Assembly (NCBI GenBank): GCA_015061745.1
Contig: SUWB01000004.1
Location: 47,883 to 111,882 of the forward strand
From: Lentisphaerota bacterium
GTDB lineage: Bacteria > Verrucomicrobiota > Lentisphaeria > Victivallales > Victivallaceae
DNA: 64,000 nt
Direction: 5' to 3'
Shown here: positions 17,185-64,000 of the stretch, one piece after another
Position numbering within the stretch: position 1 is the stretch's first letter
Layout: every line of letters starts with the position of its first letter
Translations under genes and position numbers: made by a program
Notes under the pieces: generated by a model
Database searches by the model: none
The model's input: only the letters and a program-made list of their open reading frames with translations
Told to the model about the DNA's origin: nothing

Positions 17185-17241
17185 TAACGTCAAGATGTTT
17201 TTTATTTGAAATATTTACAGGTAATAAATTTAAGGAGAGAA

Positions 17242-19830: not shown

Positions 19831-19845
19831 AAGTAAAGGTTGAAA

Positions 19846-29779: not shown

Positions 29780-29786
29780 AGCCTGT

Positions 29787-37551: not shown

Positions 37552-38613
37552 TCAATCCGCTTCGTTTTGAGGTGTCTCTGCTTGTTTGATATTGGAAAGA
37601 TTGGGATCTTCTTGGCTCCAATCCACGCTCCAAACAGGACGGCGGCGGAATTTTTCTTTGAATGTATTTTGCAGAACTCCACGGGATTCCAAACTGATCA
37701 TACAGGCCCGGGTACATCCTCTTGAACCGCAGACGGCCTGACCGGTTTTATACAGACTGACAGGTTTGTGACGGAAAGGAGACCATTCACCGGGAACTGT
37801 GTCGTTGGGTTCGCCTTTCAGATAGGGATCATCCTGAATGACACCTGAATGTTTTGTGCCGGTAAAAATAGAACCGCATTTCTGGATGTCGATGTCTGCC
37901 CACTCCACTTCGTGCCCGGCAAGGTTGACTTTTACGGTTTTTTCAGGGTCGAAACATTGTCCGGGGCAGGCTTTGACACAGGCCATACAGCGGTTGCAGA
38001 GCTGAGGGCCGTCATAAATGGGGTCAGGTTCAAGTTCCACATCAGTGAGAACGATCCCCACCCGGCAGCGGGGGCCGAACTGGGGGCTCAGGAACATCTT
38101 GCTGAAGCCGATTTCTCCCAGACCGCAGAGGTAGGCGGCAATACGCAGATGAACCATAATATCAGGACGTGCCTGTCCGGGACGGGCCGGACGGCTGAAG
38201 TTGTTTTTAAGATCTCCGCTGTTGTTGATCGCCCGCCAGTCACTCTGATGTCCCATCGGTATGGCTTCATAGCCCTGATCTTCGATGAATTTGCTCAAAT
38301 TGATCACGGTCATAGGCATATAAAGATAGGTGATGCCGCCGTAGCCCATTGCGGAGTAGTTACTGAAAAAAGTACCTTCTTCGACGCCCCGCAAACTGCC
38401 CCGTTCCACACGGAAAACAAGTCCGATAATGCTTTTGCATTCCGGCATAATCTGGCGGGGATCCATTTGCAGCGGAGAATTTTCCCAGCGTTCAATATTG
38501 CCGATCCCGACAACATCAGCTCCCAGTTCAAGAGCCTTGCGTTTCACTGCAAGAGCGGCTGCTTTGGGATCACTCAGGTCTACTGAGTTAAAATCTCTGG
38601 TCATAATGGCCAT
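37552..38613 (-). CDS. 4Fe-4S cluster protein, QueG / reductive-dehalogenase-like family
   Basis: CNRCMACVKACP ferredoxin motif plus a second Cys group CGSRGCTRAC. The N-terminal region resembles the RdhA/QueG-type fold. Confidence 0.6.
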   Translation of the reverse strand: MAIMTRDFNSVDLSDPKAAALAVKRKALELGADVVGIGNIERWENSPLQMDPRQIMPECKSIIGLVFRVERGSLRGVEEGTFFSNYSAMGYGGITYLYMPMTVINLSKFIEDQGYEAIPMGHQSDWRAINNSGDLKNNFSRPARPGQARPDIMVHLRIAAYLCGLGEIGFSKMFLSPQFGPRCRVGIVLTDVELEPDPIYDGPQLCNRCMACVKACPGQCFDPEKTVKVNLAGHEVEWADIDIQKCGSIFTGTKHSGVIQDDPYLKGEPNDTVPGEWSPFRHKPVSLYKTGQAVCGSRGCTRACMISLESRGVLQNTFKEKFRRRPVWSVDWSQEDPNLSNIKQAETPQNEAD

Positions 38614-46462: not shown

Positions 46463-46999
46463 ATGGCTATCGACAAAAATTCAAAGACCTGGAAGAATCT
46501 GGAGTATGCCTTTGCCGGTGAATCTCAGGCCCGTAACAAATACACCTATTTTGCCTCCAAGGCCCGCAAAGAAGGTTATGAGCAGATTGCTGCCATTTTT
46601 GAGCAGACTGCCAACAATGAAAAAGAACACGCCAAACTTTGGTTCAAAGAGTTGAACGGTATCGGTACCACGATTGAAAATCTTGCCGCCGCCGCTGCCG
46701 GTGAACACGAAGAATGGACCGAAATGTATCGTACCTTTGCCATCGAAGCTGAACAGGAAGGCTACACTGAGCTTGCCCGCGTTCTTGAACGCGTCGCTGC
46801 CATTGAAAAGCGTCACGAAGAACGCTACCGGAAACTGTTGGCCAATCTCGAATCCGGTGAAGTTTGGGTCCGTACCGGTGAAAACCGTTGGGAATGCCGC
46901 AACTGCGGTCACGTCTATATCGGTGAAAAAGCTCCCGAAATCTGCCCCACTTGCAAACATCCCAAAGCCTATTTTGAGATCGAAGCTCAGAACTACTGA
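46463..46999 (+). CDS. rbr: rubrerythrin
   Basis: The diiron four-helix part has two ExxH motifs ([20 protein letters not shown]). C-terminal rubredoxin part: CRNCGH...[12 protein letters not shown]. Confidence 0.95.
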
Positions 47000-47053
47000 T
47001 AATACTTCAGTGTTTTATCGGCAGCTGATTTGATCTCTGCCGGACAATTGTAA

Positions 47054-47085
47054 AACTCCTCTCGCTTTTTGAGGGGAGTTTTTTT
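47054..47085 (+). terminator. rho-independent terminator after rbr
   Basis: AACTCCTCTC-gcttttt-GAGGGGAGTT (10 bp, one G-U) followed by a T-run. Confidence 0.8.
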
Positions 47086-47168
47086 ATGCCTTTATTTTTC
47101 CGGTTCTATCCGGATTTTAGAAAATGATAAAAAATCTAACAGATTTAGATATTTTTTGATAAAAATAC

Positions 47169-47197
47169 TTGACAATATATGAATTTGGGTGTATATT
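47169..47197 (+). promoter_or_regulatory. sigma70-like promoter (TTGACA-17-TATATT) for the lipoprotein / secretin-pair locus
   Basis: TTGACAatatatgaatttgggtgTATATT, 57 nt upstream of ATG 47254. Confidence 0.6.
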
Positions 47198-47253
47198 ATT
47201 TAACATTGCAAGATATTTTTTGTAAAAACATTTTATTTTTTAAGGCAGCTTTT

Positions 47254-47721
47254 ATGAAAAGGAATCAGATTTTTTCCATTCTTTCCTGTGCGGCAATTCT
47301 TTTTGTTGTTGCCGGATGTTCTACGGTCAGGGAACTTGCTCCTGAAAAACGTCTGGGCGAACCTGCGGCAGTGGAATACAAGCTTTCCCGTGAGATCCTT
47401 GTCAACTTCATCAACAAGGACTTTGAAAAATGCCGCCAAAACCTTACTCCCGAAAATCAGCAGAAGTTCGATATTAAAAAGGTGGAAAATGTATACAATG
47501 AGATTGTCCGTTCACTGGGGACTCCTGTTTCATTTTCCTATCTGACTGAACTTGAGTTCGTTACTTTTAAGATTTACGTTTGGAAAATCAAATTCCGCCG
47601 GATCGGAAAAGAAAGAGGAACCGGAAAAGAAAAAGAGTTTTTCAGCGAAGCACTGTTCAGAGTCATTACCGGCAGAACTGGCAAAGATCAGGTGATGATT
47701 ATGGGCTTCAATTTTCTCTGA
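47254..47721 (+). CDS. small lipoprotein (155 aa), function unknown
   Basis: MKRNQIFSILSCAAILFVVAGC lipobox. Internal ATG chosen because the track's upstream extension covers the promoter. Confidence 0.7.
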   Translation: MKRNQIFSILSCAAILFVVAGCSTVRELAPEKRLGEPAAVEYKLSREILVNFINKDFEKCRQNLTPENQQKFDIKKVENVYNEIVRSLGTPVSFSYLTELEFVTFKIYVWKIKFRRIGKERGTGKEKEFFSEALFRVITGRTGKDQVMIMGFNFL

Positions 47722-47745
47722 ATATTTGAAAGCAGTGTCCAACAG

Positions 47746-47777
47746 AGAGCGTTAAAGAACGCTCTTTGTTGTTTTTT
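47746..47777 (+). terminator. hairpin plus T-run (possibly a partial terminator) between the lipoprotein and secretin genes
   Basis: AGAGCGTT-aaag-AACGCTCT followed by TTGTTGTTTTTT. Confidence 0.55.
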
Positions 47778-47828: not shown

Positions 47829-49364
47829 ATGAACAAAAAAATTTGTTCAGCCCTGGCGGTTCTTACCGCTTTGGCGATTCTGCCGGCGGTTGCCGCTGAC
47901 GGAAAAAAAGATGGTGCTGTCCGCACGATCCACCTGATCCAATCTGATGCTCAGGTGCGTTTTGACAGCAAGGTTTATGAGCTGAAGAATGTTTCTTCCG
48001 AGTCTATTCTTCCCTTTGTCAACTCAGCCATCAAGCGTTACAGTGCCAACTCCTCTGTGCGCCGCGTGACTTCTGTAAATGGCAAACGCGAAGCTCTGCT
48101 GGTTTCCACAGCTCAGGAGTTTTTCCCCTATGTTGACAAGATTGTCGCTGCTCTTGACTCTCCCGGAAAGATGAACAAAAACGGGATCGAAGGTACCGGA
48201 ATTTCCCGTATTGCCTACACTCCCAAGTATCGCGCAGCCACTCAGTTTTCCAGCATCATCAACAACACCAGCGGTTCTTCTGTCGGTGCTGCTTATGTGA
48301 ACAAAGAAACCAATACTATTTTCTGGCGCGATCAGGCTGATGCTGCCAAAAAGACTCTTAAATATGTTGAGTTCCTTGACCAGCCCCTGCCTCAGGTCAA
48401 TGTGCGTCTCAACTACTACGAATTGCGTGACAGCGACCTCAAGGACTGGGGATTTGATTATCTTGCCTGGAAGAACGGTCCCGGTGTCAACCTTTTCAAT
48501 GTCGGCTACAATGTCGGTCATCTTTTTATGGACGAAGTCCTTACCGGTGCGTTGAATGTGGCAACTTCCGCCACCTGGGCTGCCGGCGGTTTCTTCACTG
48601 CCCCCCAGTTTGATATGAGTTTCATCCGCTGTTTGCAGCAGTCCGGAAATGCCAGCATTGCTTCACACGCTGAACTGCGTATGATCAGTACTCCTGTCAG
48701 CTCAATGGCTCAGTTCCGTACTCTGCAGGCAACCCAGCTCAAGGATATCAGCAAAGCTCCCTTTGTCTACTCAATTTCTATGACTCCCGAATACCAGACC
48801 ATCGGTAAAAACAGCCTCGGACGTACCTTCGTCGGTAAGAGCTTCATTGAAGATGACGACGGAACCAGACGGGGCGATGCTCCCCAGCTTGAAGCTCAGA
48901 TCATCAATCCTTTTGTCTGTATGCCCGGCAAAAACGGAAAAGGCGGTCTGATTTTTAATTATGCTCTTTATCTTAAAGGAGTTGTTGAGCGCGGAAATAC
49001 CGGTTCTGAACTTTCCAACGCTGTGAGTTTCTCCGGTTCCTCCTCCATCGCTTTCGGTACTGAAAAGCTCCTTGCCGTCTACGAAAAAGAAAACTGGGTC
49101 GAACAGACCATCGGTCTGCCTATTCTCTGCCGTATTCCCATTCTTAAATATCTTTTCAGCACCACCACTAAGATCCAGGAGCGTACTTACATCGTGATCA
49201 CCGCTGAAGCTACTCCTGTTGATGCCACTGTCGGCAGCAGAAAGCACGTCAGTGCCACCACCAAGATCGACAGACGCAAAGATTACCCCATTAAGAGTTT
49301 CTTTGAGAAAAAAGACGACGTGAAGAAAGCTGAAAAGAAATCTGCTAAGAAAGGTAACAAATAA
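47829..49364 (+). CDS. secretin-family outer-membrane channel protein (paralogue A, 511 aa)
   Basis: Signal peptide ...LPAVAADG. Two Secretin_N-like modules (...LLVSTAQEFFPYVDKIVAALD). Secretin-domain start PQVNVRLNYYELRDSDLKDWGFDY. C-terminal signature IGLPILCRIPILKYLFSTTTKIQERTYIVITAEA. Confidence 0.8.
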   Translation: MNKKICSALAVLTALAILPAVAADGKKDGAVRTIHLIQSDAQVRFDSKVYELKNVSSESILPFVNSAIKRYSANSSVRRVTSVNGKREALLVSTAQEFFPYVDKIVAALDSPGKMNKNGIEGTGISRIAYTPKYRAATQFSSIINNTSGSSVGAAYVNKETNTIFWRDQADAAKKTLKYVEFLDQPLPQVNVRLNYYELRDSDLKDWGFDYLAWKNGPGVNLFNVGYNVGHLFMDEVLTGALNVATSATWAAGGFFTAPQFDMSFIRCLQQSGNASIASHAELRMISTPVSSMAQFRTLQATQLKDISKAPFVYSISMTPEYQTIGKNSLGRTFVGKSFIEDDDGTRRGDAPQLEAQIINPFVCMPGKNGKGGLIFNYALYLKGVVERGNTGSELSNAVSFSGSSSIAFGTEKLLAVYEKENWVEQTIGLPILCRIPILKYLFSTTTKIQERTYIVITAEATPVDATVGSRKHVSATTKIDRRKDYPIKSFFEKKDDVKKAEKKSAKKGNK

Positions 49365-51655
49365 TGAACAGCAAATATATTCTTATTTCCGCAGCAGCGG
49401 CAGGTTTCCTTTTCTGCGGATGTCAGAACCAGGGACAGACTCCTGCGGCTCAGATGCTTCCTGCGGCTGGCGGCAACACTGTCGGCAACAGAGAGGTTTC
49501 TGTCATTCCTCAGGCTATTCCCGGTACTCCCCGTTATATGAACAACGGAACCACCGGCGGCTATGCCCCCAGCAATGTTCAGGCTCAGCTGAAAATTGAT
49601 GTCAAGGACTCCACCAAAGAGGTGAAGGTCATCCGTGACAACGCCGATCCTTTTGTGATCACCAAGCCCTATACCCTGAAATATGCTGATCCCTACGCTG
49701 TCCGCAGCTATCTTGAAGCTGCTGTGGGTTCCCGCAGCATCACTGCCAGCCCTGCACAGGTTATGGCTGTCAAGAGAAATGACGGTACCGGTGTTGTTCT
49801 GGTTTCTGCTGAAGAATACCGCTTCAAAGACAGCAAAGCCGGAAGGGGGATTGACAATATTATCAAATCCCTTGACCGCAAAGGACTTTCCTACGCTCCT
49901 GATGCCGGTGTCTACGTCTATTTCCCCCGGCTCAGCCGTGCCGTCAATCTGCGTTCTATGCTGCTCAAGGTCGGTTCTCACGAACTGGATCCCCAGTTTG
50001 TTGTGGCTCCTTCCTGCATTATGGTTGACGGTGAGCTGAATGCTCTGCTTATCAAGGCTCCCGAATGGAGCTGGAAAGAGATGCGCAAACTGCTCCAGAA
50101 ATATGACCGCGCCATCCCTGAAGTGAAGATCTCTTACAGAGTTCTTGAGATCTATGCTGAAAATGATGACCGTATCGGTGTGGACTTCCAGAGCTGGAAG
50201 AACAACGAAGGTGTGGACTTCTTTTCTACCGGTATGACTTCCCGCCGCAATTGGGGAACTTTCTTCACCAGCGGCGTTCACGAAAACGGCTGGAATCGTA
50301 CCTCCTACTGGAACTTCAACCCCAAATGGAATACCCGTTATCTTGACTTTATGACCTCTATCGGCAAAGCCAAGTGTCTTGCCCAGGGAACCCTTGTGGC
50401 TCAGAACCGCCGTGCTTCACGGGTTGCGGTCAACACCGGTTTCTTCTATGACAGAACCTACTACACCGCCGGAGCCACCACCATTGCTGAAGGTACCGGA
50501 GAGTTCGCTTATGCCGACCTCAACCCCGATACCATTATGCGTGAAGGTATCAACAAGATCCTCACCTATCAGGAACTTGCCGGTCTCTATGCGAAAGTCG
50601 GACGCGACAATCCTTCCGCTCTTGCCGAATCCCTCATTGGTGCCAATCCTGAGAAATTCCTTCAGCACATCACTTATACCCAGCGCGTTATGGGTATCCA
50701 CACCGGAACTTCTCTCTACGGTGATGTTCTTTCTCAGCTTACCGACGAACAGAAAGCTCTGCTGACTCCCCAGGTCGCTGCCAAGATCGCCGAAGAAAAA
50801 GCCCCTCAGATGGCTGCTGAAAAGGTTACTGCCGCATTGACTCAGATGGGGCTGCAGCCCGGAACTCCTATGTTTGAGCAGTACTACAATGCTAAGTATG
50901 ATGCAGCTTACGAAGCCTGCTACGAAGGCATCTATGCAGAAGCTGAAAAGCAGGTTAAAGACGGAATGAAAATTCTCGGAACCAGTGAACTTTCCAAGTA
51001 TATCGGCGGTTATGTTAACGACGAAGGCAAGTGGGTCGCTCCCGGTTACTACAATGGCTACACCAACCGTGACCAGGCAAGTTCTGCTCCCGGAATCATC
51101 CACGGCTGGCTTCAGTACCCTATGATCCAGGATGGTTTCAAATTCAATTTGAAGGTCATTCCTGTCGTTACCGGAAAAGCTGCCAAACTGCGCTTTGAAC
51201 TGGACAGCATCTCTCTTATGGGATGGAACTCTGACGGTTCCGCCCGTACCAGCAAGTCCGGCACCGCCACCACCGTCCAGATCGGCTATGAGCCTCAGGA
51301 GTTCGTTATCGGCGGTCTCCGCAAGAGTGAATCTGTCCGCGGTACTGCGGGACTTCCCTTCCTCAAAGATCTTCCTATCATCGGCAGACTTCTTTCCACC
51401 GAGACTGAATCCATCAAGCAGTCCCAGCTGGTACTGATCGCCAGGGTTGAACTTTCTCACCCCGATGACAAGATGGGGGCTGATGTCAAGGAAAATGTCG
51501 GCAAGATCATCAAACAGGTCAACAAGGGCGTGAACAGTCCTATCGGAAATATGCTTTTCCAGCAGTATCTCCTTGATGAGGACCGTGCTGATCGTGAGAA
51601 TCGTCTTGACAAACTCTCAGACAAGATTAACGACAAGTATCAGGAACACAAGTAA
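49364..51655 (+). CDS. secretin-family lipoprotein (lipo-secretin, paralogue B, 763 aa) with a large internal insertion
   Basis: Lipobox AAAAGFLFCGC. N-domain modules. Secretin-domain start PEVKISYRVLEIYAENDDRIGVDFQSW. C-terminal signature TAGLPFLKDLPIIGRLLSTETESIKQSQLVLIARVE. Start overlaps the paralogue A stop (TAATG). Confidence 0.8.
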   Translation: MNSKYILISAAAAGFLFCGCQNQGQTPAAQMLPAAGGNTVGNREVSVIPQAIPGTPRYMNNGTTGGYAPSNVQAQLKIDVKDSTKEVKVIRDNADPFVITKPYTLKYADPYAVRSYLEAAVGSRSITASPAQVMAVKRNDGTGVVLVSAEEYRFKDSKAGRGIDNIIKSLDRKGLSYAPDAGVYVYFPRLSRAVNLRSMLLKVGSHELDPQFVVAPSCIMVDGELNALLIKAPEWSWKEMRKLLQKYDRAIPEVKISYRVLEIYAENDDRIGVDFQSWKNNEGVDFFSTGMTSRRNWGTFFTSGVHENGWNRTSYWNFNPKWNTRYLDFMTSIGKAKCLAQGTLVAQNRRASRVAVNTGFFYDRTYYTAGATTIAEGTGEFAYADLNPDTIMREGINKILTYQELAGLYAKVGRDNPSALAESLIGANPEKFLQHITYTQRVMGIHTGTSLYGDVLSQLTDEQKALLTPQVAAKIAEEKAPQMAAEKVTAALTQMGLQPGTPMFEQYYNAKYDAAYEACYEGIYAEAEKQVKDGMKILGTSELSKYIGGYVNDEGKWVAPGYYNGYTNRDQASSAPGIIHGWLQYPMIQDGFKFNLKVIPVVTGKAAKLRFELDSISLMGWNSDGSARTSKSGTATTVQIGYEPQEFVIGGLRKSESVRGTAGLPFLKDLPIIGRLLSTETESIKQSQLVLIARVELSHPDDKMGADVKENVGKIIKQVNKGVNSPIGNMLFQQYLLDEDRADRENRLDKLSDKINDKYQEHK

Positions 51656-52119
51656 TGAATTCCTATGGAGATTGCGAAAGAAGCTCCGCGCTTCCTGATG
51701 TGTCGGTTTTCAAAAAAATGGTACGTCTGCTTGAACTTCAGAGACGGCAGTTTTTTGAGACCGACTGGAAAAATTGTTCAGTTATGATCCCCAGGGCTCA
51801 GTTCAATCATCTGATGCTGGTGCGTTTTTCTATGCCTTGCAATCTCGGAACTATTATGAGCATAACCGGTTTGACTTCGGCAGGAGCCTCCCTCTTTGTC
51901 GACAAACTGGTTAATGCCGGAGTTCTGAAACGGGAGGAAGATCCCAACGACCGCAGAAATATCATCATTTCAGTTACCACCCAGGGACAGGAGTTTCTGC
52001 AGGAAATTGATGACCGTCTTGATGATTTCATCTACAAATATTTTGCTGAATGTTCTGCTGAAGAACTGCAAATTATTGATAGAACGATGCGGATCGTCTG
52101 TTCAAAACTCGAATCCTGA
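51655..52119 (+). CDS. MarR-family transcriptional regulator
   Basis: wHTH pattern LGTIMSITGLTSAGASLFVDKLVNAGVLKREEDPNDRRNIIISVTTQG. Start overlaps the secretin B stop (TAATG). Confidence 0.8.
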   Translation: MNSYGDCERSSALPDVSVFKKMVRLLELQRRQFFETDWKNCSVMIPRAQFNHLMLVRFSMPCNLGTIMSITGLTSAGASLFVDKLVNAGVLKREEDPNDRRNIIISVTTQGQEFLQEIDDRLDDFIYKYFAECSAEELQIIDRTMRIVCSKLES

Positions 52120-52152
52120 GTTTTTATGAAAACTCTTTGAATGGAGTTTTTG

Positions 52153-52193
52153 CACCGGAAACTGCCAAGTACAGTTTCCGGTGTTTGCTTTTT
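52153..52193 (+). terminator. rho-independent terminator after marR
   Basis: Perfect 12-bp stem CACCGGAAACTG / CAGTTTCCGGTG followed by TTTGCTTTTT. Confidence 0.8.
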
Positions 52194-52243: not shown

Positions 52244-53035
52244 ATGAAGCGCATATTGTTTTTTTGTTTGATTTTTGCTTCTCTGCTCGGAGCTGCTGAA
52301 TTGCGGGTCGTCTCACTGTCACCGGCTTTAACCGAGCTCATATGCCATTTAGGCAGGGGAAGTGTGCTGGTTGGACGCAGTGATGTTTGTAACGAGCCTG
52401 CTGCTGTCCGCCGCCTGCCGGTTGCCGGACGTTTTGCAGTTCCCTTTGTTGAAAAAATCATTGCTTTGAAACCGAATCTTCTCATAACCAATGACTTCGT
52501 CAATCCCGGCGTAAAAGTTCCCTTTGAACGTGCCGGGATCAGAACATTGCAGCTCCCCTGCCGCAATATGCAGGAGTACCGCCGCTGCGTGGAAATTCTG
52601 GGGCGGGAACTGAACGCTTCTGAGGCTGCTGCCAAAGAACTGAAAAGAATAGAGCTCTTTGGGGCTGAAAAGAGAAAGAAGCTCAATTTGCGCGTCCTCT
52701 GGGTCGTGTGGGATACGCCTTTGATGACTCCCGGGAAATATTCGCACTTGAATGAAATTATTGAACTTGCCGGAGCTCAAAATGCAACCGGAAAATTTGA
52801 GCTTGAATATTTGAGGCCCTCTTTGGATAAACTTCTCAAAGACAGAATAGATGTGATTATCTGGAGTGCTTCCAGTTCCGGGTGGAAACAACGCCGGGTC
52901 TGGAAAAAGTTTCAGGCGGTTCAGAAAAAACAGGTCTATGCCGATTTTGATCAGGATGCTCTGCTGCGTCCCGGGCCCCGTTTGCCGGAGGCTGTGCGGC
53001 AGCTTAGAAAAATATTGGAAAAGTGGAGCAAATGA
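52244..53035 (+). CDS. ABC-importer periplasmic binding protein, BtuF/FhuD (Peripla_BP_2) type
   Basis: Signal peptide followed by RVVSLSPALTELICHLG, typical of cobalamin/siderophore binding proteins. Confidence 0.75.
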   Translation: MKRILFFCLIFASLLGAAELRVVSLSPALTELICHLGRGSVLVGRSDVCNEPAAVRRLPVAGRFAVPFVEKIIALKPNLLITNDFVNPGVKVPFERAGIRTLQLPCRNMQEYRRCVEILGRELNASEAAAKELKRIELFGAEKRKKLNLRVLWVVWDTPLMTPGKYSHLNEIIELAGAQNATGKFELEYLRPSLDKLLKDRIDVIIWSASSSGWKQRRVWKKFQAVQKKQVYADFDQDALLRPGPRLPEAVRQLRKILEKWSK

Positions 53036-53964
53036 TGAAAAAAAATTCCCTGTCACTGTTTTTACTTTTTTTTGTTTTTATTTCCGGAGTCGTTCTGGGG
53101 AGTGAAATATTGAATTTCAATGATTTGTGGAATTCTCCGGTAGCCGAGCTCCGCTTTTTCAGAATGCTGGGGGCTTTGTTTATCGGGGGAGCTTTGAGTT
53201 TGAGTGGTATGGTCTTTCAGGCTGTTTTGCGGAACCCTTTGGCAGAACCTTATACATTGGGGGTCTCTGCCGGAGCCGGAGTCGGTGCTGCTGCGGCTTT
53301 TATTACAGGTCTTCACGCACTGAGTGTGTATTCTGTCCCTTTTGCCGCTTTGGGGGGAGCTCTTGTAACTGTTCTGCTCGTGCTGCGTATCAGCAGGGCA
53401 GGGGGGAGTGAAAAACTGCTGCTTTCAGGAGTCATTGCCGGAACGATTTGTTCCAGTGTACTTATGTTTCTTCTCTCTGTTGCCCGGAGTGAAGAAGTTG
53501 CCGCTGCGTCCTGGTGGCTCCTGGGGGATTTGCAATCTGTCAATGAAAAATTGCTGCTTCCTGTTATTGTGCTGACGCTGGGGATTATGTTTTATCTGCG
53601 CTGGATGGCAGGAGCTCTTGATCTGCTGGCTCTGGGAGAAAGAGAAGCTTTTTTTCTGGGACTTGACGTCGGGCGTATGAGATTGCTTATGGTTATTTGT
53701 GCATCCGCTTTGGCTGCGGCTTCTGTTGCATTGGCCGGTGCGGTTGGGTTTTGCGGGTTGATCGTTCCTCACGCTGTCCGCCGTTTGTATTCTGCTTCTC
53801 ACAGAAAGAATGTTTTTGCTATGTTCATTTGGGGCGGGATTTTTCTTATGGTATGCGATGTGATAAGCCGCATTGTGCTGCCCGGGCAGGAGTTGCCGGT
53901 AGGCGTTGTGACCTCTATAACGGGAGGGCCTGTCTTTTTGTGGATCTTGAACAGAAAGAAGTGA
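53032..53964 (+). CDS. FecCD/BtuC-family ABC permease
   Basis: Polytopic, with LLSGVIAG and GLIVPH motifs. ATG 53032 overlaps the upstream stop (ATGA). The track start is GTG 53023. Confidence 0.85.
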   Translation: MMKKNSLSLFLLFFVFISGVVLGSEILNFNDLWNSPVAELRFFRMLGALFIGGALSLSGMVFQAVLRNPLAEPYTLGVSAGAGVGAAAAFITGLHALSVYSVPFAALGGALVTVLLVLRISRAGGSEKLLLSGVIAGTICSSVLMFLLSVARSEEVAAASWWLLGDLQSVNEKLLLPVIVLTLGIMFYLRWMAGALDLLALGEREAFFLGLDVGRMRLLMVICASALAAASVALAGAVGFCGLIVPHAVRRLYSASHRKNVFAMFIWGGIFLMVCDVISRIVLPGQELPVGVVTSITGGPVFLWILNRKK

Positions 53965-53969
53965 ATCTT

Positions 53970-54731
53970 ATGGAATTGCAAGTTCAACAGCTCAGTTTTT
54001 CTTATGGCAAAAAAAGAGTCATAACGGATTGTTCTTTTTCTCTTGCTGCCGGTGAATTGACTGTGATTACGGGGCCTAACGGCAGCGGCAAATCCACTCT
54101 TGTCCATTTACTCGGCGGGGCTCTGACGCCGGATTCCGGAAAGATCACGATTGACGGCAGAAGACTGGCTGAATTTGACCATTTGGAACGTTCCTGTACC
54201 GTGGGTGTTCTTATGCAGGAAAAAATGCCCGCCCTTGATTTTACCGTGCGTGAAAGGGTGATGATGGGACGTTTTGCTTCTCTGCCCCGGATTTTTGCTC
54301 CCGGTGCAGATGAGTGCCGCAGAACAGATGAAATCCTTGAAGTGCTGGGAATGAGCTCCTTTGCTCAAACCCCCTGTAATCGCCTTTCGGGGGGAGAATA
54401 CCAGAAGGTGCTGATTGCTTCTTTACTGGTGCGTGAAACGCCGGTTATGCTTCTTGATGAACCGACTTCTGCATTGGATCCGGCCGGAGCTCTTGAAGTT
54501 ATGGCTCTGTTGCAGAAGAAAAAGAAAGAGTGTGCCATAGCTGTTGTGACTCACGATCTGACACTTGCTTCACTTTTTGCCGATAAGCTGCTGCTTGTCA
54601 GTAACGGCGGAATCTGGGCAGCGGGAGTCCCTGAAAAAGTATTGACCGCTGAAAATATTGCAGCTGTTTATAAATGTGATTCAGAAATACTGCCTTCTTC
54701 TGCGGGGCCTGTGCCTGTTTTCAGAAGGTGA
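53970..54731 (+). CDS. ABC-importer ATP-binding protein (BtuD/FecE-like)
   Basis: GPNGSGKST, LSGGEYQKVLIASLL and MLLDEPTSALD. Internal ATG 53970 lies 6 nt after the permease stop. Confidence 0.85.
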   Translation: MELQVQQLSFSYGKKRVITDCSFSLAAGELTVITGPNGSGKSTLVHLLGGALTPDSGKITIDGRRLAEFDHLERSCTVGVLMQEKMPALDFTVRERVMMGRFASLPRIFAPGADECRRTDEILEVLGMSSFAQTPCNRLSGGEYQKVLIASLLVRETPVMLLDEPTSALDPAGALEVMALLQKKKKECAIAVVTHDLTLASLFADKLLLVSNGGIWAAGVPEKVLTAENIAAVYKCDSEILPSSAGPVPVFRR

Positions 54732-54827: not shown

Positions 54828-55865
54828 ATGAGCAAAGTTATCCGTTGCGGTGTTTGCGGACTGGGCCGGATCGGATGGGGATTTCATCTGCCGGCAATCA
54901 AAAATTGTGAAGGAATGGAAGTGACTGCCGTTGCCGATCCCCTTCAGGAACGGCTGGATGAAGCACAGCAGAATTACGGAGTTCCGTATCGTTTTACTGA
55001 CTGGAAAGCTCTGGGGGATGCCAACTTGATCGATCTGGCAGTTATCGCTTCACCGACTGCATTTCATCGTGAACAGTGTGAATTCTTTTTACGCAGAGGA
55101 ATTAATGTTTTCTGTGATAAACCAATGGCTCTTTCTCTTGAAGATGCTCAATCTATGGCTCAGACCGCTAAAGAGTATGGACGGAAAATTATGGTATATC
55201 AGCCTCACCGTCTGAATGCTTTGACCCTGAAAGCCCGGGAGATCATCAATTCCGGTAAACTTGGCCGGATCTACAAATTCCGCCGCAATGTTTATTCCTT
55301 TGTCCGCCGGAACGACTGGCAGGCCTTTACGGCTCAAGGTGGCGGTATGCTGAATAACTATGGGGCTCATTTTCTCGATCAGCTTCTCTATCTGGGGGGC
55401 GAGAAAAAAGCTGAAGCGATCCGGTGCGAAACAGCCAGACTGCTTTCTGCCGGTGATGCAGAGGATTATGTTTCTGTTGTAATGCGGGGGGAGAAAGGGA
55501 TCATTTACGAACTTGAGATCAATATGGCTGCCGCTCATTCAGCTCCCTTTGATCTGGAAATTTACGGAACTCAGGGGAGTGCCGTCTTTCAGAAAGGCAA
55601 ATGGACGTTGAGGTATTGCGGAGAACTTCCCGAAGTGACCATTCAACAGGGCCTTGCTGCCCTTGATCGCCGCTACCCGCCCAAAGAACAGAATTTTACA
55701 GAGGAAATTGAGGAAAATCCCGAAGTTTCTTCTTATGACTGGTACAAATATTGCAGGGATTTTTTCGGCGGCAGTGCAGCTCCGTTTGTCCCTGTTGAAA
55801 ATACCCTCGAAGTGATGCGGCTGCTTGAAGAAAGCCGCAAATCATCAGCTCAATTTTGGAAATGA
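54828..55865 (+). CDS. Gfo/Idh/MocA-family oxidoreductase
   Basis: IRCGVCGLGRIGWGFH Rossmann motif and FLRRGINVFCDKPMA. AAGGA RBS. Confidence 0.8.
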   Translation: MSKVIRCGVCGLGRIGWGFHLPAIKNCEGMEVTAVADPLQERLDEAQQNYGVPYRFTDWKALGDANLIDLAVIASPTAFHREQCEFFLRRGINVFCDKPMALSLEDAQSMAQTAKEYGRKIMVYQPHRLNALTLKAREIINSGKLGRIYKFRRNVYSFVRRNDWQAFTAQGGGMLNNYGAHFLDQLLYLGGEKKAEAIRCETARLLSAGDAEDYVSVVMRGEKGIIYELEINMAAAHSAPFDLEIYGTQGSAVFQKGKWTLRYCGELPEVTIQQGLAALDRRYPPKEQNFTEEIEENPEVSSYDWYKYCRDFFGGSAAPFVPVENTLEVMRLLEESRKSSAQFWK

Positions 55866-58162
55866 ATCACCGGGTGAATAAAATGAAAAAAACATTGGAT
55901 ACGATTCTTACTGAACGTACTCTCAACTGGCGTCAGCATTGCGGAATGACTCCCAATTGGGGATTGAGAAAACCGTCGGTTTTGGATCTTTCTCAAGATG
56001 CTCTCGCTCTTTTACGCAGGAATCCTGCCGCATACGGTAAAAAAATCTGGCGCAATGGAGATATTCTGTTCCCGGCAGCGGATTTTTCAAAGCCCTATGC
56101 TTTGCCTGAAGCTGAGTTCGGCAAAAACTTTATTGCCTCTGTTCCGGACGGACATACATTTTACACCGCTCTTGCCAAAAAAATGGGCGGGAAGATCATT
56201 TCAGACAAAGCCCCTCTCCCTGAAGGGGAAAAGGCAATTATTTTCGGATCTTCTGCTGAAAATCAGCACGCCTGCCGTCTGGCTATGCTTCAGCGGGTTA
56301 TGGCCAACGGGATTTTTCCCGGTAAGGGCGGCTGGAGTCTGGAATTCCCCTATGGCAAAACTTTGAGGGCCGTGGTCTGCTGTGACGAAGAAAGTGAAGC
56401 GGCATTTCTCAAGCATTGGGAATCAGAACGGACTCCTGCTTCTGCTCCCGGACCTTTTGTGCCTGAAATTTACAAAGATCCAGAGAAACTTCTTGCCACA
56501 GAGGTAAGTGCCCGGATCGAAGTTGAAAGCTTTGAAGATTGTGTCGAAAAGATCAATGCCGCTTTTGACTGCGGCGGTCCTGAGGTGGGAAGGGACAACG
56601 GTCATTGTACTGTGCCCACTCTGGTGAAATGTTTTTACGCCTGGTTTTATACCGGAGATATCCGTTTCCTTAAAACATTCAAAGAGATTTTCTTCGGGCT
56701 GGTGCATTACTATCTTGCCTTTCCCGACGGTGCAAGTTATATTTCAGACTACGATTTTTATCTGGGTTCTCTCATCAACTGTTTTGCGGCCGCAGAAAGA
56801 CACCCGCTTTTTACTGATGAGGAACGTCTGCTGGGAAGTGCATTTATGCTGAGTTCATTCCGGCTTATTGAAAAATACGGCAAAGATCACTGGCCTATGC
56901 GGGAGTGTGCGTTGCGTTTCAATCACGAAACATTCCCCGCTATCAGCTGCTACTGGGGAGCACGGTACTTTGAAGAAAATTACGGACTGAAAAGTGATGC
57001 CGCACGTTGGAAATTTTATGCAAAAACCGCTTTTTGCGGCGGAGAGCTCAGCCGGACCTGGCGGCAGAGAGAGAATTCCGGCGACTATCAGTGGATCGTG
57101 CCCAGTCAGAAACTCCAATGGGATCTGGCTGAAAAAGGCAAGCCTTCTCCCGGATTCCGTAAGATGGCTGAAGCTATTGGCTGCGTTTCAGATAATCAGG
57201 GACGGCAAGTCGGATATGGAGATGCCGCAGCAATGGCGGGTGCCGGACACAAAGATATGCTGCAAGCATTGGCACAGGTGTGTAATGACAAACTGGCGAG
57301 TGCACTTTCAGCTCAGCTTGATGCTTATGGAGCTTCTTATCTCCCCGTTCCCGGCTGGGGCGGGTATTTGCATACTGCCGGGGAGAAAAATTCCGGTGTG
57401 ACGGTGAAAAAAGGGTGGAAGGAGCTTCCCCTTGTTTCTCACGTGCTCAAACGTTTCCCCGAAGCCGCAGCCTGCAAAGCGGACAAGGTCCTCTACCGGG
57501 ATGAAAATCGTTATTTTCTCTTTGAACCTTGTTCCTGTGATTCCCACCGGCACCACGATACCGGAGCTATTCTTGCTTATGAGCACGGAAAGCATTTCTG
57601 GCTGGTGGATAACGGATACGGATTTGATGTGCACAACACGCCTGTCAATATGAGCAAGGCATACAGTTCCCGTGAAGTGGGACCTCATTGTCACAATACG
57701 CTGATTTTCCGCGATGCCGAAGGAAAAATCGTTTATCCTCCTGAATTTTCTGTGTTCCGCCGCCGGGGCGATACGCTCTATTGCGAAATGACTCTGCCCG
57801 GGATCAAGTGGTGCCGGCAGGTAGAACTTCTTGCCAACGGTCTGCAGGTCATTGACGAAGTGACCCGTACCGGAGAGACCGCTGCAGTTTCAGTTGAGTG
57901 TCAGTTCAACTCTTTGGGAAATGCAAAACTCCGGAAAAACGTCTGGAGTCTTGAACAGAAAGAAAATGGCAAGGCGGAATTGCACTTTAATGATTCAGTA
58001 AAGTGCAAAGTCATTGAAAGTTCATATTTGACTAAAGGTTGGGAAAGTGCTTTGAAGACCCATTACACTCTGGCTGAAGGCGATGTGAAACAGCTTCGCC
58101 GCATTGCAGAGCTGCCTGCTGTGGACGAAAAAGTTGTCTTTCAAAGTGTTTTTTCAGTGTGA
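55862..58162 (+). CDS. heparinase II/III-like polysaccharide-lyase-family protein
   Basis: SHRHHDTGAILAYEHGKHFWLVDNGY matches the heparinase II/III C-terminal pattern (H-x-H-x-D...DxG). ATG 55862 overlaps the upstream stop. ATG 55883 is an alternative start. Confidence 0.6.
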   Translation: MNHRVNKMKKTLDTILTERTLNWRQHCGMTPNWGLRKPSVLDLSQDALALLRRNPAAYGKKIWRNGDILFPAADFSKPYALPEAEFGKNFIASVPDGHTFYTALAKKMGGKIISDKAPLPEGEKAIIFGSSAENQHACRLAMLQRVMANGIFPGKGGWSLEFPYGKTLRAVVCCDEESEAAFLKHWESERTPASAPGPFVPEIYKDPEKLLATEVSARIEVESFEDCVEKINAAFDCGGPEVGRDNGHCTVPTLVKCFYAWFYTGDIRFLKTFKEIFFGLVHYYLAFPDGASYISDYDFYLGSLINCFAAAERHPLFTDEERLLGSAFMLSSFRLIEKYGKDHWPMRECALRFNHETFPAISCYWGARYFEENYGLKSDAARWKFYAKTAFCGGELSRTWRQRENSGDYQWIVPSQKLQWDLAEKGKPSPGFRKMAEAIGCVSDNQGRQVGYGDAAAMAGAGHKDMLQALAQVCNDKLASALSAQLDAYGASYLPVPGWGGYLHTAGEKNSGVTVKKGWKELPLVSHVLKRFPEAAACKADKVLYRDENRYFLFEPCSCDSHRHHDTGAILAYEHGKHFWLVDNGYGFDVHNTPVNMSKAYSSREVGPHCHNTLIFRDAEGKIVYPPEFSVFRRRGDTLYCEMTLPGIKWCRQVELLANGLQVIDEVTRTGETAAVSVECQFNSLGNAKLRKNVWSLEQKENGKAELHFNDSVKCKVIESSYLTKGWESALKTHYTLAEGDVKQLRRIAELPAVDEKVVFQSVFSV

Positions 58163-60585: not shown

Positions 60586-61857
60586 ATGGCCGCTGCCGGC
60601 CGTCCTGACATAAACGACTCCGGGAATCCTGTAAAACGGGAATCCCGGAGTTTTTGTGCTTTTATTGCCGGATTTGATTGGATTCAGATCTTTTCTCTGC
60701 TCTTTTTGTTAGCTTTCGGATTGGTTTTTATCCATTCTACGGGTGTGCAGGTCGGAACTGCTGCATCGGCACGTTTTTTTGAAAAACAGTTGACCCAATG
60801 GATCCCCTGCGGAGCTTTGCTGTGGCTGTTTTTCTCTTTGATCGACTACCGGAAATTATATTTCAAAGTCGGGGCTGTTCTTTTCTTTCTTGTGACGACT
60901 CTGGCTCTGGTTCTGGTGCTGAAATACGGAGTCAAAGTCTATGGGGCGACCCGCTGGCTTATGGTGGGGGCATTTCGTCTGCAGCCCTCTGAGTTTGGGA
61001 AACTCTCTCTTATTCTCGTATTGGCGTGGCTCTTTTCATCGCCCCGTTTCAGCGGCGCAAAGTGGACGGGGATCTTTGCGGGGACGGCTCTTGTTATGGT
61101 GCCGGCTGTTTTGATTTTCAAAGAGCCTGATCTGGGAGGGACGCTGATTCTTTTTCCCATTGCCGGGACTATGCTTTTGGTTTCCGGATTGAAATGGCGT
61201 TGGCTGCTGTTGGTCTCTGCAATCTGTTGTGCTGCCTTTTTCTCGCTACGTGCTGTGGTTTTGTCCTATAAATCGGACTCGGAAAAAAAGAGTGCAGCCA
61301 TTGTCCGGAAAGAGGGGAACGCCAAAGCTGCCAGGGTAAAGAATACCTGGTTCGGTTTGAAAGAATACCAGATAAAGCGGCTTAGGGTTTTCTTTAAACC
61401 CAATTCTGACATTTCCAACAGCGGGCATAATGTGTATCAGTCCCGTTTAGCTGTCGGTTCCGGCGGCTTCCGGGGCAAAGGAATCGGCAACGGCACTCAA
61501 AACCGGTATGGTTTTTTGCCGCAGACAGTTGCAAACAACGACTTTATTTTTTCTGTCATCGCTGAAGAAACCGGATTTGTGGGATGTCTGCTTCTTATTG
61601 CCGGGTATGTTGTATTTTTTTATTCGATTTTCCGGACGGCTTTCAAAGCACCGCCTTTGGGGCGTATGATCGCCGTTGGCATTGGGACAATGTTGTTTTG
61701 TCATACCTATATCAATATTGGTATGTGCATCGGTCTTGCTCCTGTGACCGGGCTGCCTTTGCCTTTTGTCAGCTACGGAGGCTCTTTCATTTTTGTGGGA
61801 ATGATGTGTATGGGGATTCTCCAGAGCGTTTACCGCAACAGTACTTCTGAAAGATAA
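60586..61857 (+). CDS. second SEDS-family protein (FtsW/RodA/SpoVE)
   Basis: About 10 TM helices. RLQPSEFGKLSLIL, QSRLAVGSGGFRGKG and LPLPFVSYGGSFIF. Confidence 0.85.
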   Translation: MAAAGRPDINDSGNPVKRESRSFCAFIAGFDWIQIFSLLFLLAFGLVFIHSTGVQVGTAASARFFEKQLTQWIPCGALLWLFFSLIDYRKLYFKVGAVLFFLVTTLALVLVLKYGVKVYGATRWLMVGAFRLQPSEFGKLSLILVLAWLFSSPRFSGAKWTGIFAGTALVMVPAVLIFKEPDLGGTLILFPIAGTMLLVSGLKWRWLLLVSAICCAAFFSLRAVVLSYKSDSEKKSAAIVRKEGNAKAARVKNTWFGLKEYQIKRLRVFFKPNSDISNSGHNVYQSRLAVGSGGFRGKGIGNGTQNRYGFLPQTVANNDFIFSVIAEETGFVGCLLLIAGYVVFFYSIFRTAFKAPPLGRMIAVGIGTMLFCHTYINIGMCIGLAPVTGLPLPFVSYGGSFIFVGMMCMGILQSVYRNSTSER

Positions 61858-61935: not shown

Positions 61936-64000
61936 TTATTTCCCGATTTTTAGTTCCGGAGAAAACAACTTGAGATATGTTTCCCAATCAGACTTTTTGA
62001 TTTGTGCCAGGGCTGCCTGGGAAACTTTCTTTTCCATAAATTCATAGTAGAAAATATGTCGGCTTGACTTGAGAGGTGAAAGCGCGATCGCGTTGAAAAA
62101 TTCCTTTCTTATTCGGCCTTTATTCATAGAAAGTTTTTTAATTTTTCCGTCGTAGGACTGGTAATACACAGCTTTCCCGGGAACAACTTTGACAATATTT
62201 CTCATACTGCTGCCAACTTGAACGATCATAGGGGGACGGGGATAAGATTCTGAAATCTTTTCCATTGTCGCTTTATATGCGGATATTTCTTTGAGGGCAC
62301 GGGGCAGGAATTTTTGGAAGCCCGTGAATTCTGCGATTTTAGCCACTTCAATTGGAGTTGTGCAGCTGCTGGGGATCAGATAATCCTTCGCTTGGGTCAG
62401 TGCATCGTTGAGAGCCTGAGGCGTGTTATTTTCAATAGAAAGATAAAATCCTTTGGTCAGAGATTGGTAAATTTTATTGAAGTCGTCAGTCAATTTCCGG
62501 GTACGGGCATCATTTTCAGCCTTGGTACGGGCTGCTTGTTCCCTCAGTTTTGCTTCCTCTGCTGCTTGAGATTCTGCAGCAGATTGTTGCTGTTTGGCAG
62601 ATTCCAACTGTGCTTTCAAGGCATTGGCTTTGGCATCGCGCTCTGCTTGCAGGCGTTGCTTCCACGCATTGATAGCTTCCTGACGTTTCGGGGCGAATCT
62701 GAAGTTTTCATCTGCGGGAGCATAAGCCACCCGCAACGCAGAGAGTGCTTTGGCTTCTTCATTGGTGACGACAGGCAGGAATTGAGCCAGAAGTTTATCT
62801 GCACTCTCAAGGAACTGCATTCCTTTATCCGGGTTGCTGCGATAGTTATCCAAAAGAGTTTTTACACCGTCTACAAAGGCTTTACGGGTGACGGGTTTGG
62901 GCTTCGGTTTGGGAAGAACCTGAGACGGAGCCGCCTGGGGCGCAACAGTACTGACTGTTTTCTGCGCTTCAGGAGCGGCTGCTTTGATCTTGAAAACAGA
63001 ATTGACAAAGGCCGCATATTTTTCTCCGGGAGCTTTCAGTTTTTCGGGCAATTTCCCTTTTTGTGCCAAAACATAAAAGAGTACAGCCAAAAGAATGAGG
63101 AAAACGGGCAGAAATACCAGATAAGTAATCAGCGACCACTTATTACGGCTGGGCCGCTCAATGCGTTCCTTGTCTTTCCCTTTTTTATCTTTTCCTTTTT
63201 CCTTACTTTTATCTTCCCCTTTTCCTTCTTTATCTTCCTTTTCTGCAGGGGCTTTTTTAGTTTTGGGGGGAGCGAGAGTCAGTTCATCTGATTTGGCTTC
63301 GGGCGCAGGGGCGGGAGTTGCGGGAACTTCAGCTTGAGGCTGTTCTGCCTGATTAGGGGTGGGGGCAGCTTCTGCTTTTTTTACTTCTGCAGCTTGTTCC
63401 GGCGCAGCAGGGGTCGCTGCCGCCGGAGCTTCTTTTTTTTCTGGAGCCGCGGGGGGAGCTGGCACGGCAGGCTTTGCCGGGGTCGCAGGCTTTGCCGGAG
63501 TTGCAGGTTTTGCCGGAGTCGCAGGTTTTGCCGGAGTCGCAGGTTTGGGGGCAAGTGCTTTTGGCATTGCTGCGGCAGGTTTTGCCGTTGTTCCGGGGAC
63601 TCCGATTTTTGGGGCAGTTCCGGGTTTTGCTGTGGTTCCTGCTGTCGGTCCGAATTTCGGTGGAAGCAAAGGGGATTTGCCCTTGGCTGCTCCATTTGGA
63701 GAGAAATTCAAACTCAGTTTCGGGATAGCTACACTGGCCGTTTTGAGTGAATATGCGTCAAGGTCTTTGATAATATCGGCGGGGGTCTGGTAACGGTCTT
63801 CAATATGCCGAGCCATCATCTTGACGATAATATCATTCAATTGCTGGGGCAGTTCCGGATTGATATCTTTTGGGGGAGTCAGATTACCTTCCACGTGCTT
63901 GCGTGCCATTGCTTCGGCGGATTCTTCGGGATAGGGAAACTGGCCCGTAACAAATTGATAAAAGGTTGCTCCGAGACTGTAAATATCGCTTCGGACGTCG
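61936..64000 (-). CDS. membrane Ser/Thr protein kinase, N-terminus beyond the window end: Pro/Ala/Lys-rich linker, TM helix, extracytoplasmic coiled-coil domain
   Basis: The frame stays open upstream of the track's Met. My translation of 63910-64000 gives DVRSDIYSLGATFYQFVTGQFPYPEESAEA (kinase subdomain IX). It is followed by the KPATPA repeats and the TM helix WSLITYLVFLPVFLILLAVLFYVLA. Confidence 0.85.
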   Translation of the reverse strand, partial: DVRSDIYSLGATFYQFVTGQFPYPEESAEAMARKHVEGNLTPPKDINPELPQQLNDIIVKMMARHIEDRYQTPADIIKDLDAYSLKTASVAIPKLSLNFSPNGAAKGKSPLLPPKFGPTAGTTAKPGTAPKIGVPGTTAKPAAAMPKALAPKPATPAKPATPAKPATPAKPATPAKPAVPAPPAAPEKKEAPAAATPAAPEQAAEVKKAEAAPTPNQAEQPQAEVPATPAPAPEAKSDELTLAPPKTKKAPAEKEDKEGKGEDKSKEKGKDKKGKDKERIERPSRNKWSLITYLVFLPVFLILLAVLFYVLAQKGKLPEKLKAPGEKYAAFVNSVFKIKAAAPEAQKTVSTVAPQAAPSQVLPKPKPKPVTRKAFVDGVKTLLDNYRSNPDKGMQFLESADKLLAQFLPVVTNEEAKALSALRVAYAPADENFRFAPKRQEAINAWKQRLQAERDAKANALKAQLESAKQQQSAAESQAAEEAKLREQAARTKAENDARTRKLTDDFNKIYQSLTKGFYLSIENNTPQALNDALTQAKDYLIPSSCTTPIEVAKIAEFTGFQKFLPRALKEISAYKATMEKISESYPRPPMIVQVGSSMRNIVKVVPGKAVYYQSYDGKIKKLSMNKGRIRKEFFNAIALSPLKSSRHIFYYEFMEKKVSQAALAQIKKSDWETYLKLFSPELKIGK
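63469..63540 (-). repeat. four tandem 18-bp in-frame repeats encoding (KPATPA)n in the kinase linker
   Basis: Plus strand reads AGGCTTTGCCGGGGTCGC / AGGCTTTGCCGGAGTTGC / AGGTTTTGCCGGAGTCGC / AGGTTTTGCCGGAGTCGC, with degenerate copies on both flanks. Confidence 0.85.

Follow-up and report, generated by a model that had tools for sequence, protein, structure and literature searches.

Secretins form the largest gated pores in the outer membrane of bacteria and have been studied as homo-oligomers in type II secretion systems (T2SS), type IV pili (T4P), type III secretion systems (T3SS) and filamentous phages. Here, a 64-kb window (the whole stretch analyzed, 64,000 nucleotides of contig SUWB01000004.1 from a Lentisphaerota bacterium) carries two adjacent genes, named secretin A and secretin B in this work, which are both annotated as 'hypothetical protein' in GenBank. 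Together with a small lipoprotein gene and a MarR-family regulator gene, they make up a four-gene cassette. An earlier, sequence-only reading of the window had proposed that A and B are translationally coupled secretin paralogues.

The T2SS secretins (GspD, PulD and XcpD; PDB 5WQ8, 5WLN and 6HCG) were the best sequence and fold matches for both A and B, and share with them an overall layout of predicted N-terminal ring domains followed by a secretin domain with the G-LP-L…IP-G-LF signature. However, GspD is the product of a single gene within a gsp operon and assembles as a homomeric 15-mer, whereas the window holds two coupled, divergent paralogues away from gsp-like genes. In addition, B carries a predicted gate-loop insertion (approximately 140-230 amino acids (aa) among B homologues), and both A and B score far below the GspD cut-off of TIGR02517.

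Lipidated secretins include HxcQ, BfpB and TcpC. B of the window resembles them in having a signal-peptidase-II lipobox with a conserved Cys, but the lipobox was lost in several lineages of the B family and the A and B genes lie outside any pilus operon. The partner of BfpB or TcpC is a small accessory protein (BfpG or TcpQ), whereas the partner here is a second full secretin. A published study describes BfpB as a lipoprotein (PMC12531336).

Two secretin-family genes are used by the rhizobial T3SS, in which RhcC1 is reduced to a truncated remnant of the N-terminal part, and its C-terminal part was replaced by RhcC2, a secretin of Tad origin (PMC3459982). It was the sole natural case found with two secretin-family genes for one machine, and serves as a loose precedent. 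The rhizobial genes represent a split and a replacement, whereas A and B are adjacent full paralogues from an old duplication. A division with the N-module in one gene and the secretin module in the other does not apply to A and B, as each holds N-terminal domains and a C-terminal secretin signature.

A secretin from the Planctomycetes-Verrucomicrobia-Chlamydiae (PVC) superphylum, the Amuc_1098-type PilQ (NF042912; PMC4960237), gave a weak C-terminal match to B (E-value 4.7e-5), but B scored 21.6 bits against a cut-off of 750. Amuc_1098 also differs in that it is one protein, some 900 aa long, whose N-terminal region is TPR/BAM-like, and it is encoded in a pilus-like gene cluster. When the literature was searched for paired or heteromeric secretins and for secretins of Lentisphaerae, Sumerlaeota and Planctomycetes, nothing on the A/B pair was found, and a survey of type-IV filaments mentions neither paired secretins nor these phyla (PMC6668835). 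The two-secretin module is real and conserved, and it apparently has not been described before.

Both open reading frames (ORFs) had been placed exactly in the sequence-only reading, and the motifs quoted there were all found: PQVNVRLNYYEL at A188, PEVKISYRVLEI at B252, and the C-terminal signatures GLPILCRIPILKYLFSTTTK...YIVITAEA in A and GLPFLKDLPIIGRLLSTETES...LVLIARVE in B. Translational coupling is visible at the A/B junction AAATAATGAAC, where the stop codon of A (TAA) and the start codon of B (ATG) overlap by one base (TAATG), and the same overlap was seen between B and the MarR gene.

Close homologues of B number in the hundreds and, where named, all belong to Lentisphaeria/Victivallaceae metagenome bins. 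In a scan with one genome per species, relatives of B were found in 216 genomes. The best 80 of the 216 were labelled Lentisphaerae, Lentisphaeria or Victivallales, except for eight labelled 'uncultured bacterium', and most of them were recovered from animals and humans, in gut, rumen or faecal samples. A was located directly 5' of B (gap of -4 to +33 nt) in all 74 Lentisphaeria/Victivallales loci with both genes readable, and the few loci without A are those in which the contig starts inside or just before B. Neither A nor B was seen alone wherever the context was readable. The small lipoprotein gene is found 5' of A in 64 loci, and in most loci the MarR gene lies 3' of B at -4 to +67 nt. Three distant B-family members have unrelated neighbourhoods and the same order of a gene of about 150 aa, A, B and MarR. 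Thus, the block of lipoprotein, A, B and MarR genes is syntenic in related genomes amid unrelated flanks, and a recent rearrangement of this one locus does not explain it because the block is an 'orphan' in nearly every genome.

The order is changed in a divergent sub-clade of 10 loci (B 45-48% identical), where MarR lies directly 5' of A and the small lipoprotein is absent. In these loci the lipobox Cys of B is not conserved and the signal of B looks like the signal-peptidase-I type. Two cassette copies (L042 and L080) were observed on separate contigs of one metagenome-assembled genome (MAG), RGIG10120, which could be a real duplication, a strain mixture or a binning artefact.

A search with the A-family profile returned 527 cluster representatives at E-values of 1e-3 or lower, including 60 at 1e-30 or lower. 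All eight distant representatives that were examined have two adjacent secretin genes, the first encoding 457-569 aa and the second 537-719 aa. Two of the eight pairs are in labelled MAGs, one Sumerlaeia (L092, with a 4-nt overlap) and one Planctomycetes (L093), and other relatives of this distant clade are labelled Sumerlaeota or Planctomycetes, in addition to two Proteobacteria MAGs that are probably mis-binned. A metagenome scan starting from the distant clade yielded 80 loci; the second secretin gene follows the first in 72 of 72 informative loci and the other 8 are cut by the contig end.

When the distant pairs were compared with both family profiles, gene 1 of L087, L088 and L090 was A-type (230-360 bits on the A profile vs 37-54 on the B profile) and gene 2 was B-type (276-436 bits on the B profile vs 38-80 on the A profile), which indicates that the duplication predates these lineages. 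Both genes of the Sumerlaeota-type pairs are about equally distant from A and B. A GFDxWLLD motif ends both genes of these pairs; in Victivallales only B keeps it, as GNMLFQQYLLD, which is related to the GFDQWLLD found in the second gene or in both genes of distant pairs. Invariant columns in the tail of B are G728, N729, M730, F732, Q734, L737 and D738.

The distant cassettes have no MarR gene, and about half of them have a conserved 5' gene whose product, a lipoprotein of some 265 aa, matches no Pfam family (L092:8963-9751, L093:469-1269, L091:2027-2860 and 43 more). Homology between this protein and the 155-aa lipoprotein of the window was considered and rejected, as hhalign gave a probability of 20% confined to the lipobox. 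In L089 (5636-7411), two ORFs of 268 and 322 aa beside an IS66 transposase gene together make up the second secretin gene; this split could reflect a frameshift, a pseudogene or an error of assembly. Another match of the A-family profile in a public collection, P0384, is a protein of 3396 aa in which 13 segments match profile positions 41-114, the first N-domain of A; it appears to be a giant array of Secretin_N-like repeats.

A and B are under strong constraint and change slowly, at similar rates, with a mean column identity of 62% in the A family and 64% in the B family, and both families show long invariant runs without decay. Both genes are intact and highly conserved, so that neither is a decayed pseudogene. 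On the basis of strict adjacency, translational coupling, deep co-inheritance and comparable constraint, A and B are very probably functionally interdependent. Our preferred reading, which we hold with even confidence, goes further: A and B would form one outer-membrane secretin complex serving a type-IV-filament machinery encoded elsewhere in the genome.

A and B were then placed among known secretins using profiles and models. The comparison of the A-family and B-family profiles by hhalign gave a probability of 98.4% (E-value 8e-15) over a region that spans the N-terminal domains and extends through the first strand of the secretin domain, and the two proteins are approximately 21% identical over their N-terminal part. 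On the Pfam Secretin model (PF00263, gathering score 27.5), B scored 48.2 bits and covered model positions 59-164 only, while A scored 21.6 bits with 34 residues aligned to model positions 129-162 only. Both proteins are under the threshold of 28.2 for Secretin_N (PF03958), A with 20.8 bits and B with 19.2 bits. Precomputed PF03958 matches are present on many B homologues, and many A homologues have precomputed PF03958 and PF00263 matches (PF03958 on most). Against sequences in the PDB, the B-family profile matched GspD chains at an E-value of 3.6e-8, and the best match of the A-family profile was phage pIV at 0.002.

AlphaFold2 (AF2) monomer models of A and B were poor (mean predicted local distance difference test (pLDDT) 51 and 53; template-modelling scores, or TM-scores, 0.13-0.26) and were used for secondary structure and for family assignment with Foldseek only, not for geometry. 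All matches at an E-value of 1e-3 or lower were secretins, 40 of 40 for the A model (GspD, InvG, BfpB, PilQ, pIV and RcpA; best E-value 2.5e-11) and 17 of 17 for the B model. BfpB-BfpG (9u5s) was among the fold matches of A, and both models gave weak matches to XcpQ N0-N2. The proposed paralogy within the secretin family is therefore supported by Pfam for B, and by Pfam matches of homologues, hhalign and Foldseek for A. Neither protein reached the NCBIfam equivalog cut-offs for GspD, PilQ, MshL or SctC. B scored 53.4 against 351 (TIGR02517, GspD), 44.4 against 284 (TIGR02515, PilQ), 62.8 against 250 (TIGR02519, MshL) and 44.8 against 238 (TIGR02516, SctC), and the scores of A on the same models were 29.8, 27.2, 23.2 and 31.6, respectively. 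Judged by these profiles, A and B are members of the secretin superfamily that fall outside its curated subfamilies.

The divergence of A, with its short Pfam match and marginal PDB match, could also mean that B is the pore and A a secretin-derived accessory without a barrel, such as a periplasmic ring, scaffold, gate-keeper or chaperone under or around B. The Victivallales A has lost the GFDxWLLD-type C-terminal motif, which B and both partners in the Sumerlaeota-type pairs keep, and the N-terminal domains are the best-conserved part that A has in common with B. However, the low-confidence AF2 model of A has five long C-terminal beta-strands as in a secretin barrel, with lengths like those of B, and A retains the G-[LI]P-[IF]L…IP-[IV]L-K-YLF signature and the WKNGPG motif. 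Gene 1 of the Sumerlaeota-type pairs is, moreover, the more canonical secretin, with a match to Pfam Secretin positions 2-167 of 169 at 108 bits. We consider an accessory role of A decidedly unlikely.

With residues 380-590 removed, the Pfam Secretin model aligned to B in one unbroken stretch (positions 3-164 of 169; 58.8 bits), and this contiguous, higher-scoring match indicates an insertion of about 210 aa in the domain. A helical hairpin was predicted within the insertion at residues 461-536, with pLDDT of 84-91 over residues 450-540 of the AF2 model. In XcpD, two pivot glycines bound the central gate (466-496), and G466 was taken as the equivalent of the glycine mutated by Yan et al. (PMC10550240). 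PDB entry 5WQ9 is the V. cholerae G453A mutant. Since F594 of B aligns to residue 482 of V. cholerae GspD, the published gate limits would place the insertion within the central-gate loop or at its C-terminal edge. From this alignment and the literature, the insertion of B would sit at the central-gate loop of canonical secretins. In a homomeric B ring, 15 copies of it would be expected to crowd the lumen, which would argue against a ring of B alone.

We also considered whether the gate-loop insertion is a trait of every 'second' secretin. It is not, as gene 2 of the Sumerlaeota-type pairs aligns end to end with the gene-1 hidden Markov model and has no large insert. As far as the alignments tell, the gate-loop insertion is a feature of the Lentisphaerae-type B family.

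The two proteins differ in their predicted targeting. A has an ordinary signal-peptidase-I signal (…LPAVA|ADG), while the N-terminus of B, MNSKYILISAAAAGFLFCGC, contains the lipobox FLFCG-C20 with Cys20, a residue whose conservation across 25 homologues is 90% or higher. The sequence-only reading had compared B with self-piloting lipo-secretins of the HxcQ type. The lipobox itself is present in B of the window, but the self-piloting idea is weakened by its repeated loss. Lipidation of B as a trait tied to the small lipoprotein was ruled out, since at least 8 loci have the lipoprotein and a B without lipobox.

Pfam scans covered the four genes of the cassette, both of its flanking genes and another 40 large ORFs in the window. 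None of these 46 ORFs matched T2SSE, T2SSF, PilM/N/O, GspC/L/M, prepilin peptidase or N_methyl pilin families, and their Pfam content consisted of housekeeping, transport and carbohydrate-related genes. Likewise, a six-frame motif scan of the window found no GspE/PilB Walker boxes and no prepilin FTLIE motif. The earlier observation that no secretion ATPase, platform or pilin gene lies nearby thus agrees with both scans. In the Victivallales flanks (approximately 1.3 Mb scanned for machinery motifs), ATPase Walker motifs were found within 10 kb in just 2 of 85 loci (L017 and L082), both confirmed as T2SSE, and the pair is therefore not always part of a complete T2SS or T4P operon elsewhere. 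No ATPase or prepilin genes were found in the 0.68 Mb of flanks of the distant cassettes (0 of 88 loci with an ATPase). Many Victivallales loci have PVC-type prepilin genes dispersed in their flanks, without specific linkage. A conserved linkage of the cassette to ATPase or prepilin genes was ruled out by these motif scans of the window and flanks.

The consistent absence of linked T2SS and T4P genes from both sets of flanks would suit a stand-alone outer-membrane channel that works without a pseudopilus machine, for example in polymer export or import as proposed for slime secretins. Secretins have been reported to be necessary for exopolymer slime secretion, and orphan secretin paralogues occur in Myxococcus (PMC12475490), which would fit such a channel, as would the frequent carbohydrate-use neighbours of the cassette (glycoside hydrolases and transporters). 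However, these carbohydrate neighbourhoods are not conserved, and such genes are plentiful in these genomes anyway. N-terminal ring domains of the machine-docking type appear to be kept in both A and B, and these genomes encode T2SSE ATPases and many prepilins. A stand-alone channel is, in our judgement, quite improbable.

The T2SSE genes of L082 and L017 lie 4-8 kb from the cassette, in these two loci only. L017 (15369-17642, minus strand) has a 757-aa protein with two T2SSE domains, and in L082 (795-5368, minus strand) three consecutive genes encode T2SSE ATPases, of which one is PilT-like and two carry MshEN domains. With two MshEN-type PilB/GspE ATPase genes and a PilT-like gene, more than one machine is probable in at least the genome of L082, and A and B might then be two independent homo-oligomeric secretins, co-expressed and each serving a different type-IV-filament machine elsewhere (e.g. 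one T2SS-like and one T4P-like). The wide divergence of A and B, their different targeting signals and the homo-oligomeric state of all solved secretins returned by our searches are in line with two such homomers. To our knowledge, gspD and pilQ are neither adjacent nor translationally coupled in bacteria with both T2SS and T4P, whereas A and B are adjacent in every one of about 150 loci. In addition, neither gene was found by itself in readable contexts or beside the genes of any machine. Two separate homomers appear rather unlikely to us.

The preferred reading of one A and B complex was then weighed. That the pair forms a heteromeric or two-component channel had been suggested from the sequence alone, and the idea was strengthened, although not proven, by the retention of the dyad in all of the roughly 150 loci, including Sumerlaeia- and Planctomycetes-labelled MAGs. 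Kazmierczak et al. are said to have made mixed multimers of f1 and IKe pIV by co-expression in 1994, so heteromers should be physically possible. Because these genomes hold PilB/GspE/PilT-type ATPases and many prepilins, type-IV-filament machinery is the likely client.

Several observations weigh against a single A and B complex. Every secretin returned from the PDB by the sequence and fold searches is a homo-oligomer with multiple copies of one chain. A has no secretin domain above the Pfam threshold, with 34 residues matched, and it may not form a pore for this reason. The AF2 confidence of both models is low. Only 2 of the 85 Victivallales loci, and none of the 88 distant ones, had an ATPase gene within 10 kb of the cassette, and the two PilB/GspE-like ATPase genes of L082 also fit two machines with one secretin each. 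The lipobox of B is not universal, having been lost in several loci that keep the small lipoprotein (at least 8). Furthermore, the small lipoprotein is missing in one Victivallales sub-clade, and a terminator-like hairpin lies between its gene and A.

Through the TAATG overlap, translation of A and B is coupled, and the two proteins would thus be made together in a fixed ratio. If they do form one complex, they may assemble into a mixed ring or two associated rings in the outer membrane. The complex would likely be the outer-membrane conduit for a T2SS/T4P-like machinery elsewhere in the genome. The bulky gate-loop domain of B would be easier to fit if B filled only part of the ring positions. 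The small lipoprotein is a candidate assembly or piloting factor, and the co-translated MarR protein probably autoregulates the unit. We tentatively propose, as a possibility short of probable, a natural and obligate hetero-oligomeric secretin (e.g. an alternating 14- or 16-mer) with a gate domain in B only, which would be ancestral in the clade.

The small lipoprotein was examined as a possible pilotin, as had been suggested for it. It resembles the secretin pilotins (PulS/AspS, PilF/TadD and MxiM classes) in being a small outer-membrane-type lipoprotein encoded beside secretin genes, and its lipobox G21-C22 is invariant in 17 homologues. However, it has no sequence or profile similarity to them, and the lipoprotein at this place in the Sumerlaeota-type pairs is unrelated. 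Searches of Pfam and the PDB gave no match to a known pilotin family or solved structure, only a weak match to Pfam DUF3887 (E-value 0.03). With neither Pfam nor PDB support, with its absence from one sub-clade and with a hairpin separating its gene from A, the pilotin assignment was dropped. Its start is likely at 47254 and not at 47179; the GenBank call also has 155 aa, and the strong promoter-like site at 47169-47197 falls within the longer mechanical ORF (47179-47721), in favour of the start at 47254.

The MarR protein scored 30.0 bits on PF01047 (cut-off 24.6) and is named MarR family transcriptional regulator in GenBank. The imperfect inverted repeat upstream of the promoter (arms 81% complementary, 5 nt apart) might be a MarR operator, in an AT-rich region where such a repeat could occur by chance. 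The hairpin between the lipoprotein gene and A, whose arms are 93% complementary, could be a terminator or an attenuator. Another terminator-like hairpin (47052-47082; AAAACTCCTCTC…GAGGGGAGTTTT, then a T-run) is located 3' of the rubrerythrin gene and separates that gene from the cassette promoter. The features of the locus are listed in Table 1.

Table 1 Features of the two-secretin cassette, with positions in the 64-kb window
Feature	Position	Strand	Description
Secretin A	47829..49364	+	511 aa; signal-peptidase-I signal, two N-terminal ring-type domains, divergent secretin domain from about residue 188, Lys-rich C-terminal tail
Secretin B	49364..51655	+	763 aa; lipobox Cys20, N-terminal domains, secretin domain at about residues 252-696 with insertion, conserved helical C-terminal tail
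Small lipoprotein gene	47254..47721	+	155 aa; signal MKRNQIFSILSCAAILFVVAG-C; putative factor in A/B assembly
MarR-family regulator	51655..52119	+	154 aa; TAATG overlap with B
Insertion inside B secretin domain	50456..51133	+	About residues 365-590
Conserved C-terminal tail of B	51461..51652	+	Holds GNMLFQQYLLD motif
Imperfect 16-nt inverted repeat ATGATAAAAAATCTAA / TTAGATATTTTTTGAT	47124..47160	.	Just 5' of the -35 hexamer; candidate MarR operator
Sigma-70-like promoter TTGACA-17-TATATT	47169..47197	+	11/12 positions
Terminator-like hairpin between lipoprotein gene and A	47740..47771	+	14-bp stem, then T-run
Terminator-like hairpin closing the unit	52152..52184	+	13-bp stem, then T-run

By Pfam, the cassette is flanked by a rubrerythrin gene (46463-46999) and a Peripla_BP_2 / FecCD / ABC_tran importer (52244-54731). 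In L001, a DUF4838 gene lies between the rubrerythrin gene and the secretin cassette, and the window has tandem DUF4838 proteins of about 860 aa each at 17206-19830 and 19840-22416 (plus strand). Two fusion proteins were also observed on the minus strand, one of 848 aa (8875-11421) with a Ser/Thr protein kinase domain fused to a C-terminal FGE-sulfatase (formylglycine-generating-enzyme-like) domain, and one of 607 aa (31603-33426) with an N-terminal radical-SAM (S-adenosylmethionine) and a C-terminal class I/II aminotransferase domain. FtsW/RodA-family genes are found at 28047-29836 (minus strand) and 60586-61857 (plus strand), one of them adjoining a short gene with a PBP_dimer domain only. 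Four ORFs had no Pfam match at an E-value of 1e-5 or lower, namely 55856-58162 (plus strand, 768 aa), 61936-63909 (minus strand, 657 aa), 11428-13203 (minus strand, 591 aa) and 37552-38613 (minus strand, 353 aa).

For annotation pipelines, A and B represent two new families. The pair bears on protein and filament transport across the outer membrane in PVC-group and Sumerlaeota bacteria, which have no well-described secretion systems. A heterotypic pair, if true, would raise the question of how ring stoichiometry and symmetry are set and how a gate is built from half of the subunits. In an alternating ring, only B would give a gate-loop domain, resulting in a gating or plug architecture unlike that of any solved secretin. 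The two-subunit design would then be ancestral to the secretin clade of Lentisphaeria and the Sumerlaeota- and Planctomycetes-labelled lineages, and members of the PVC group could use a two-subunit secretin with machinery that handles very large prepilin-type families.

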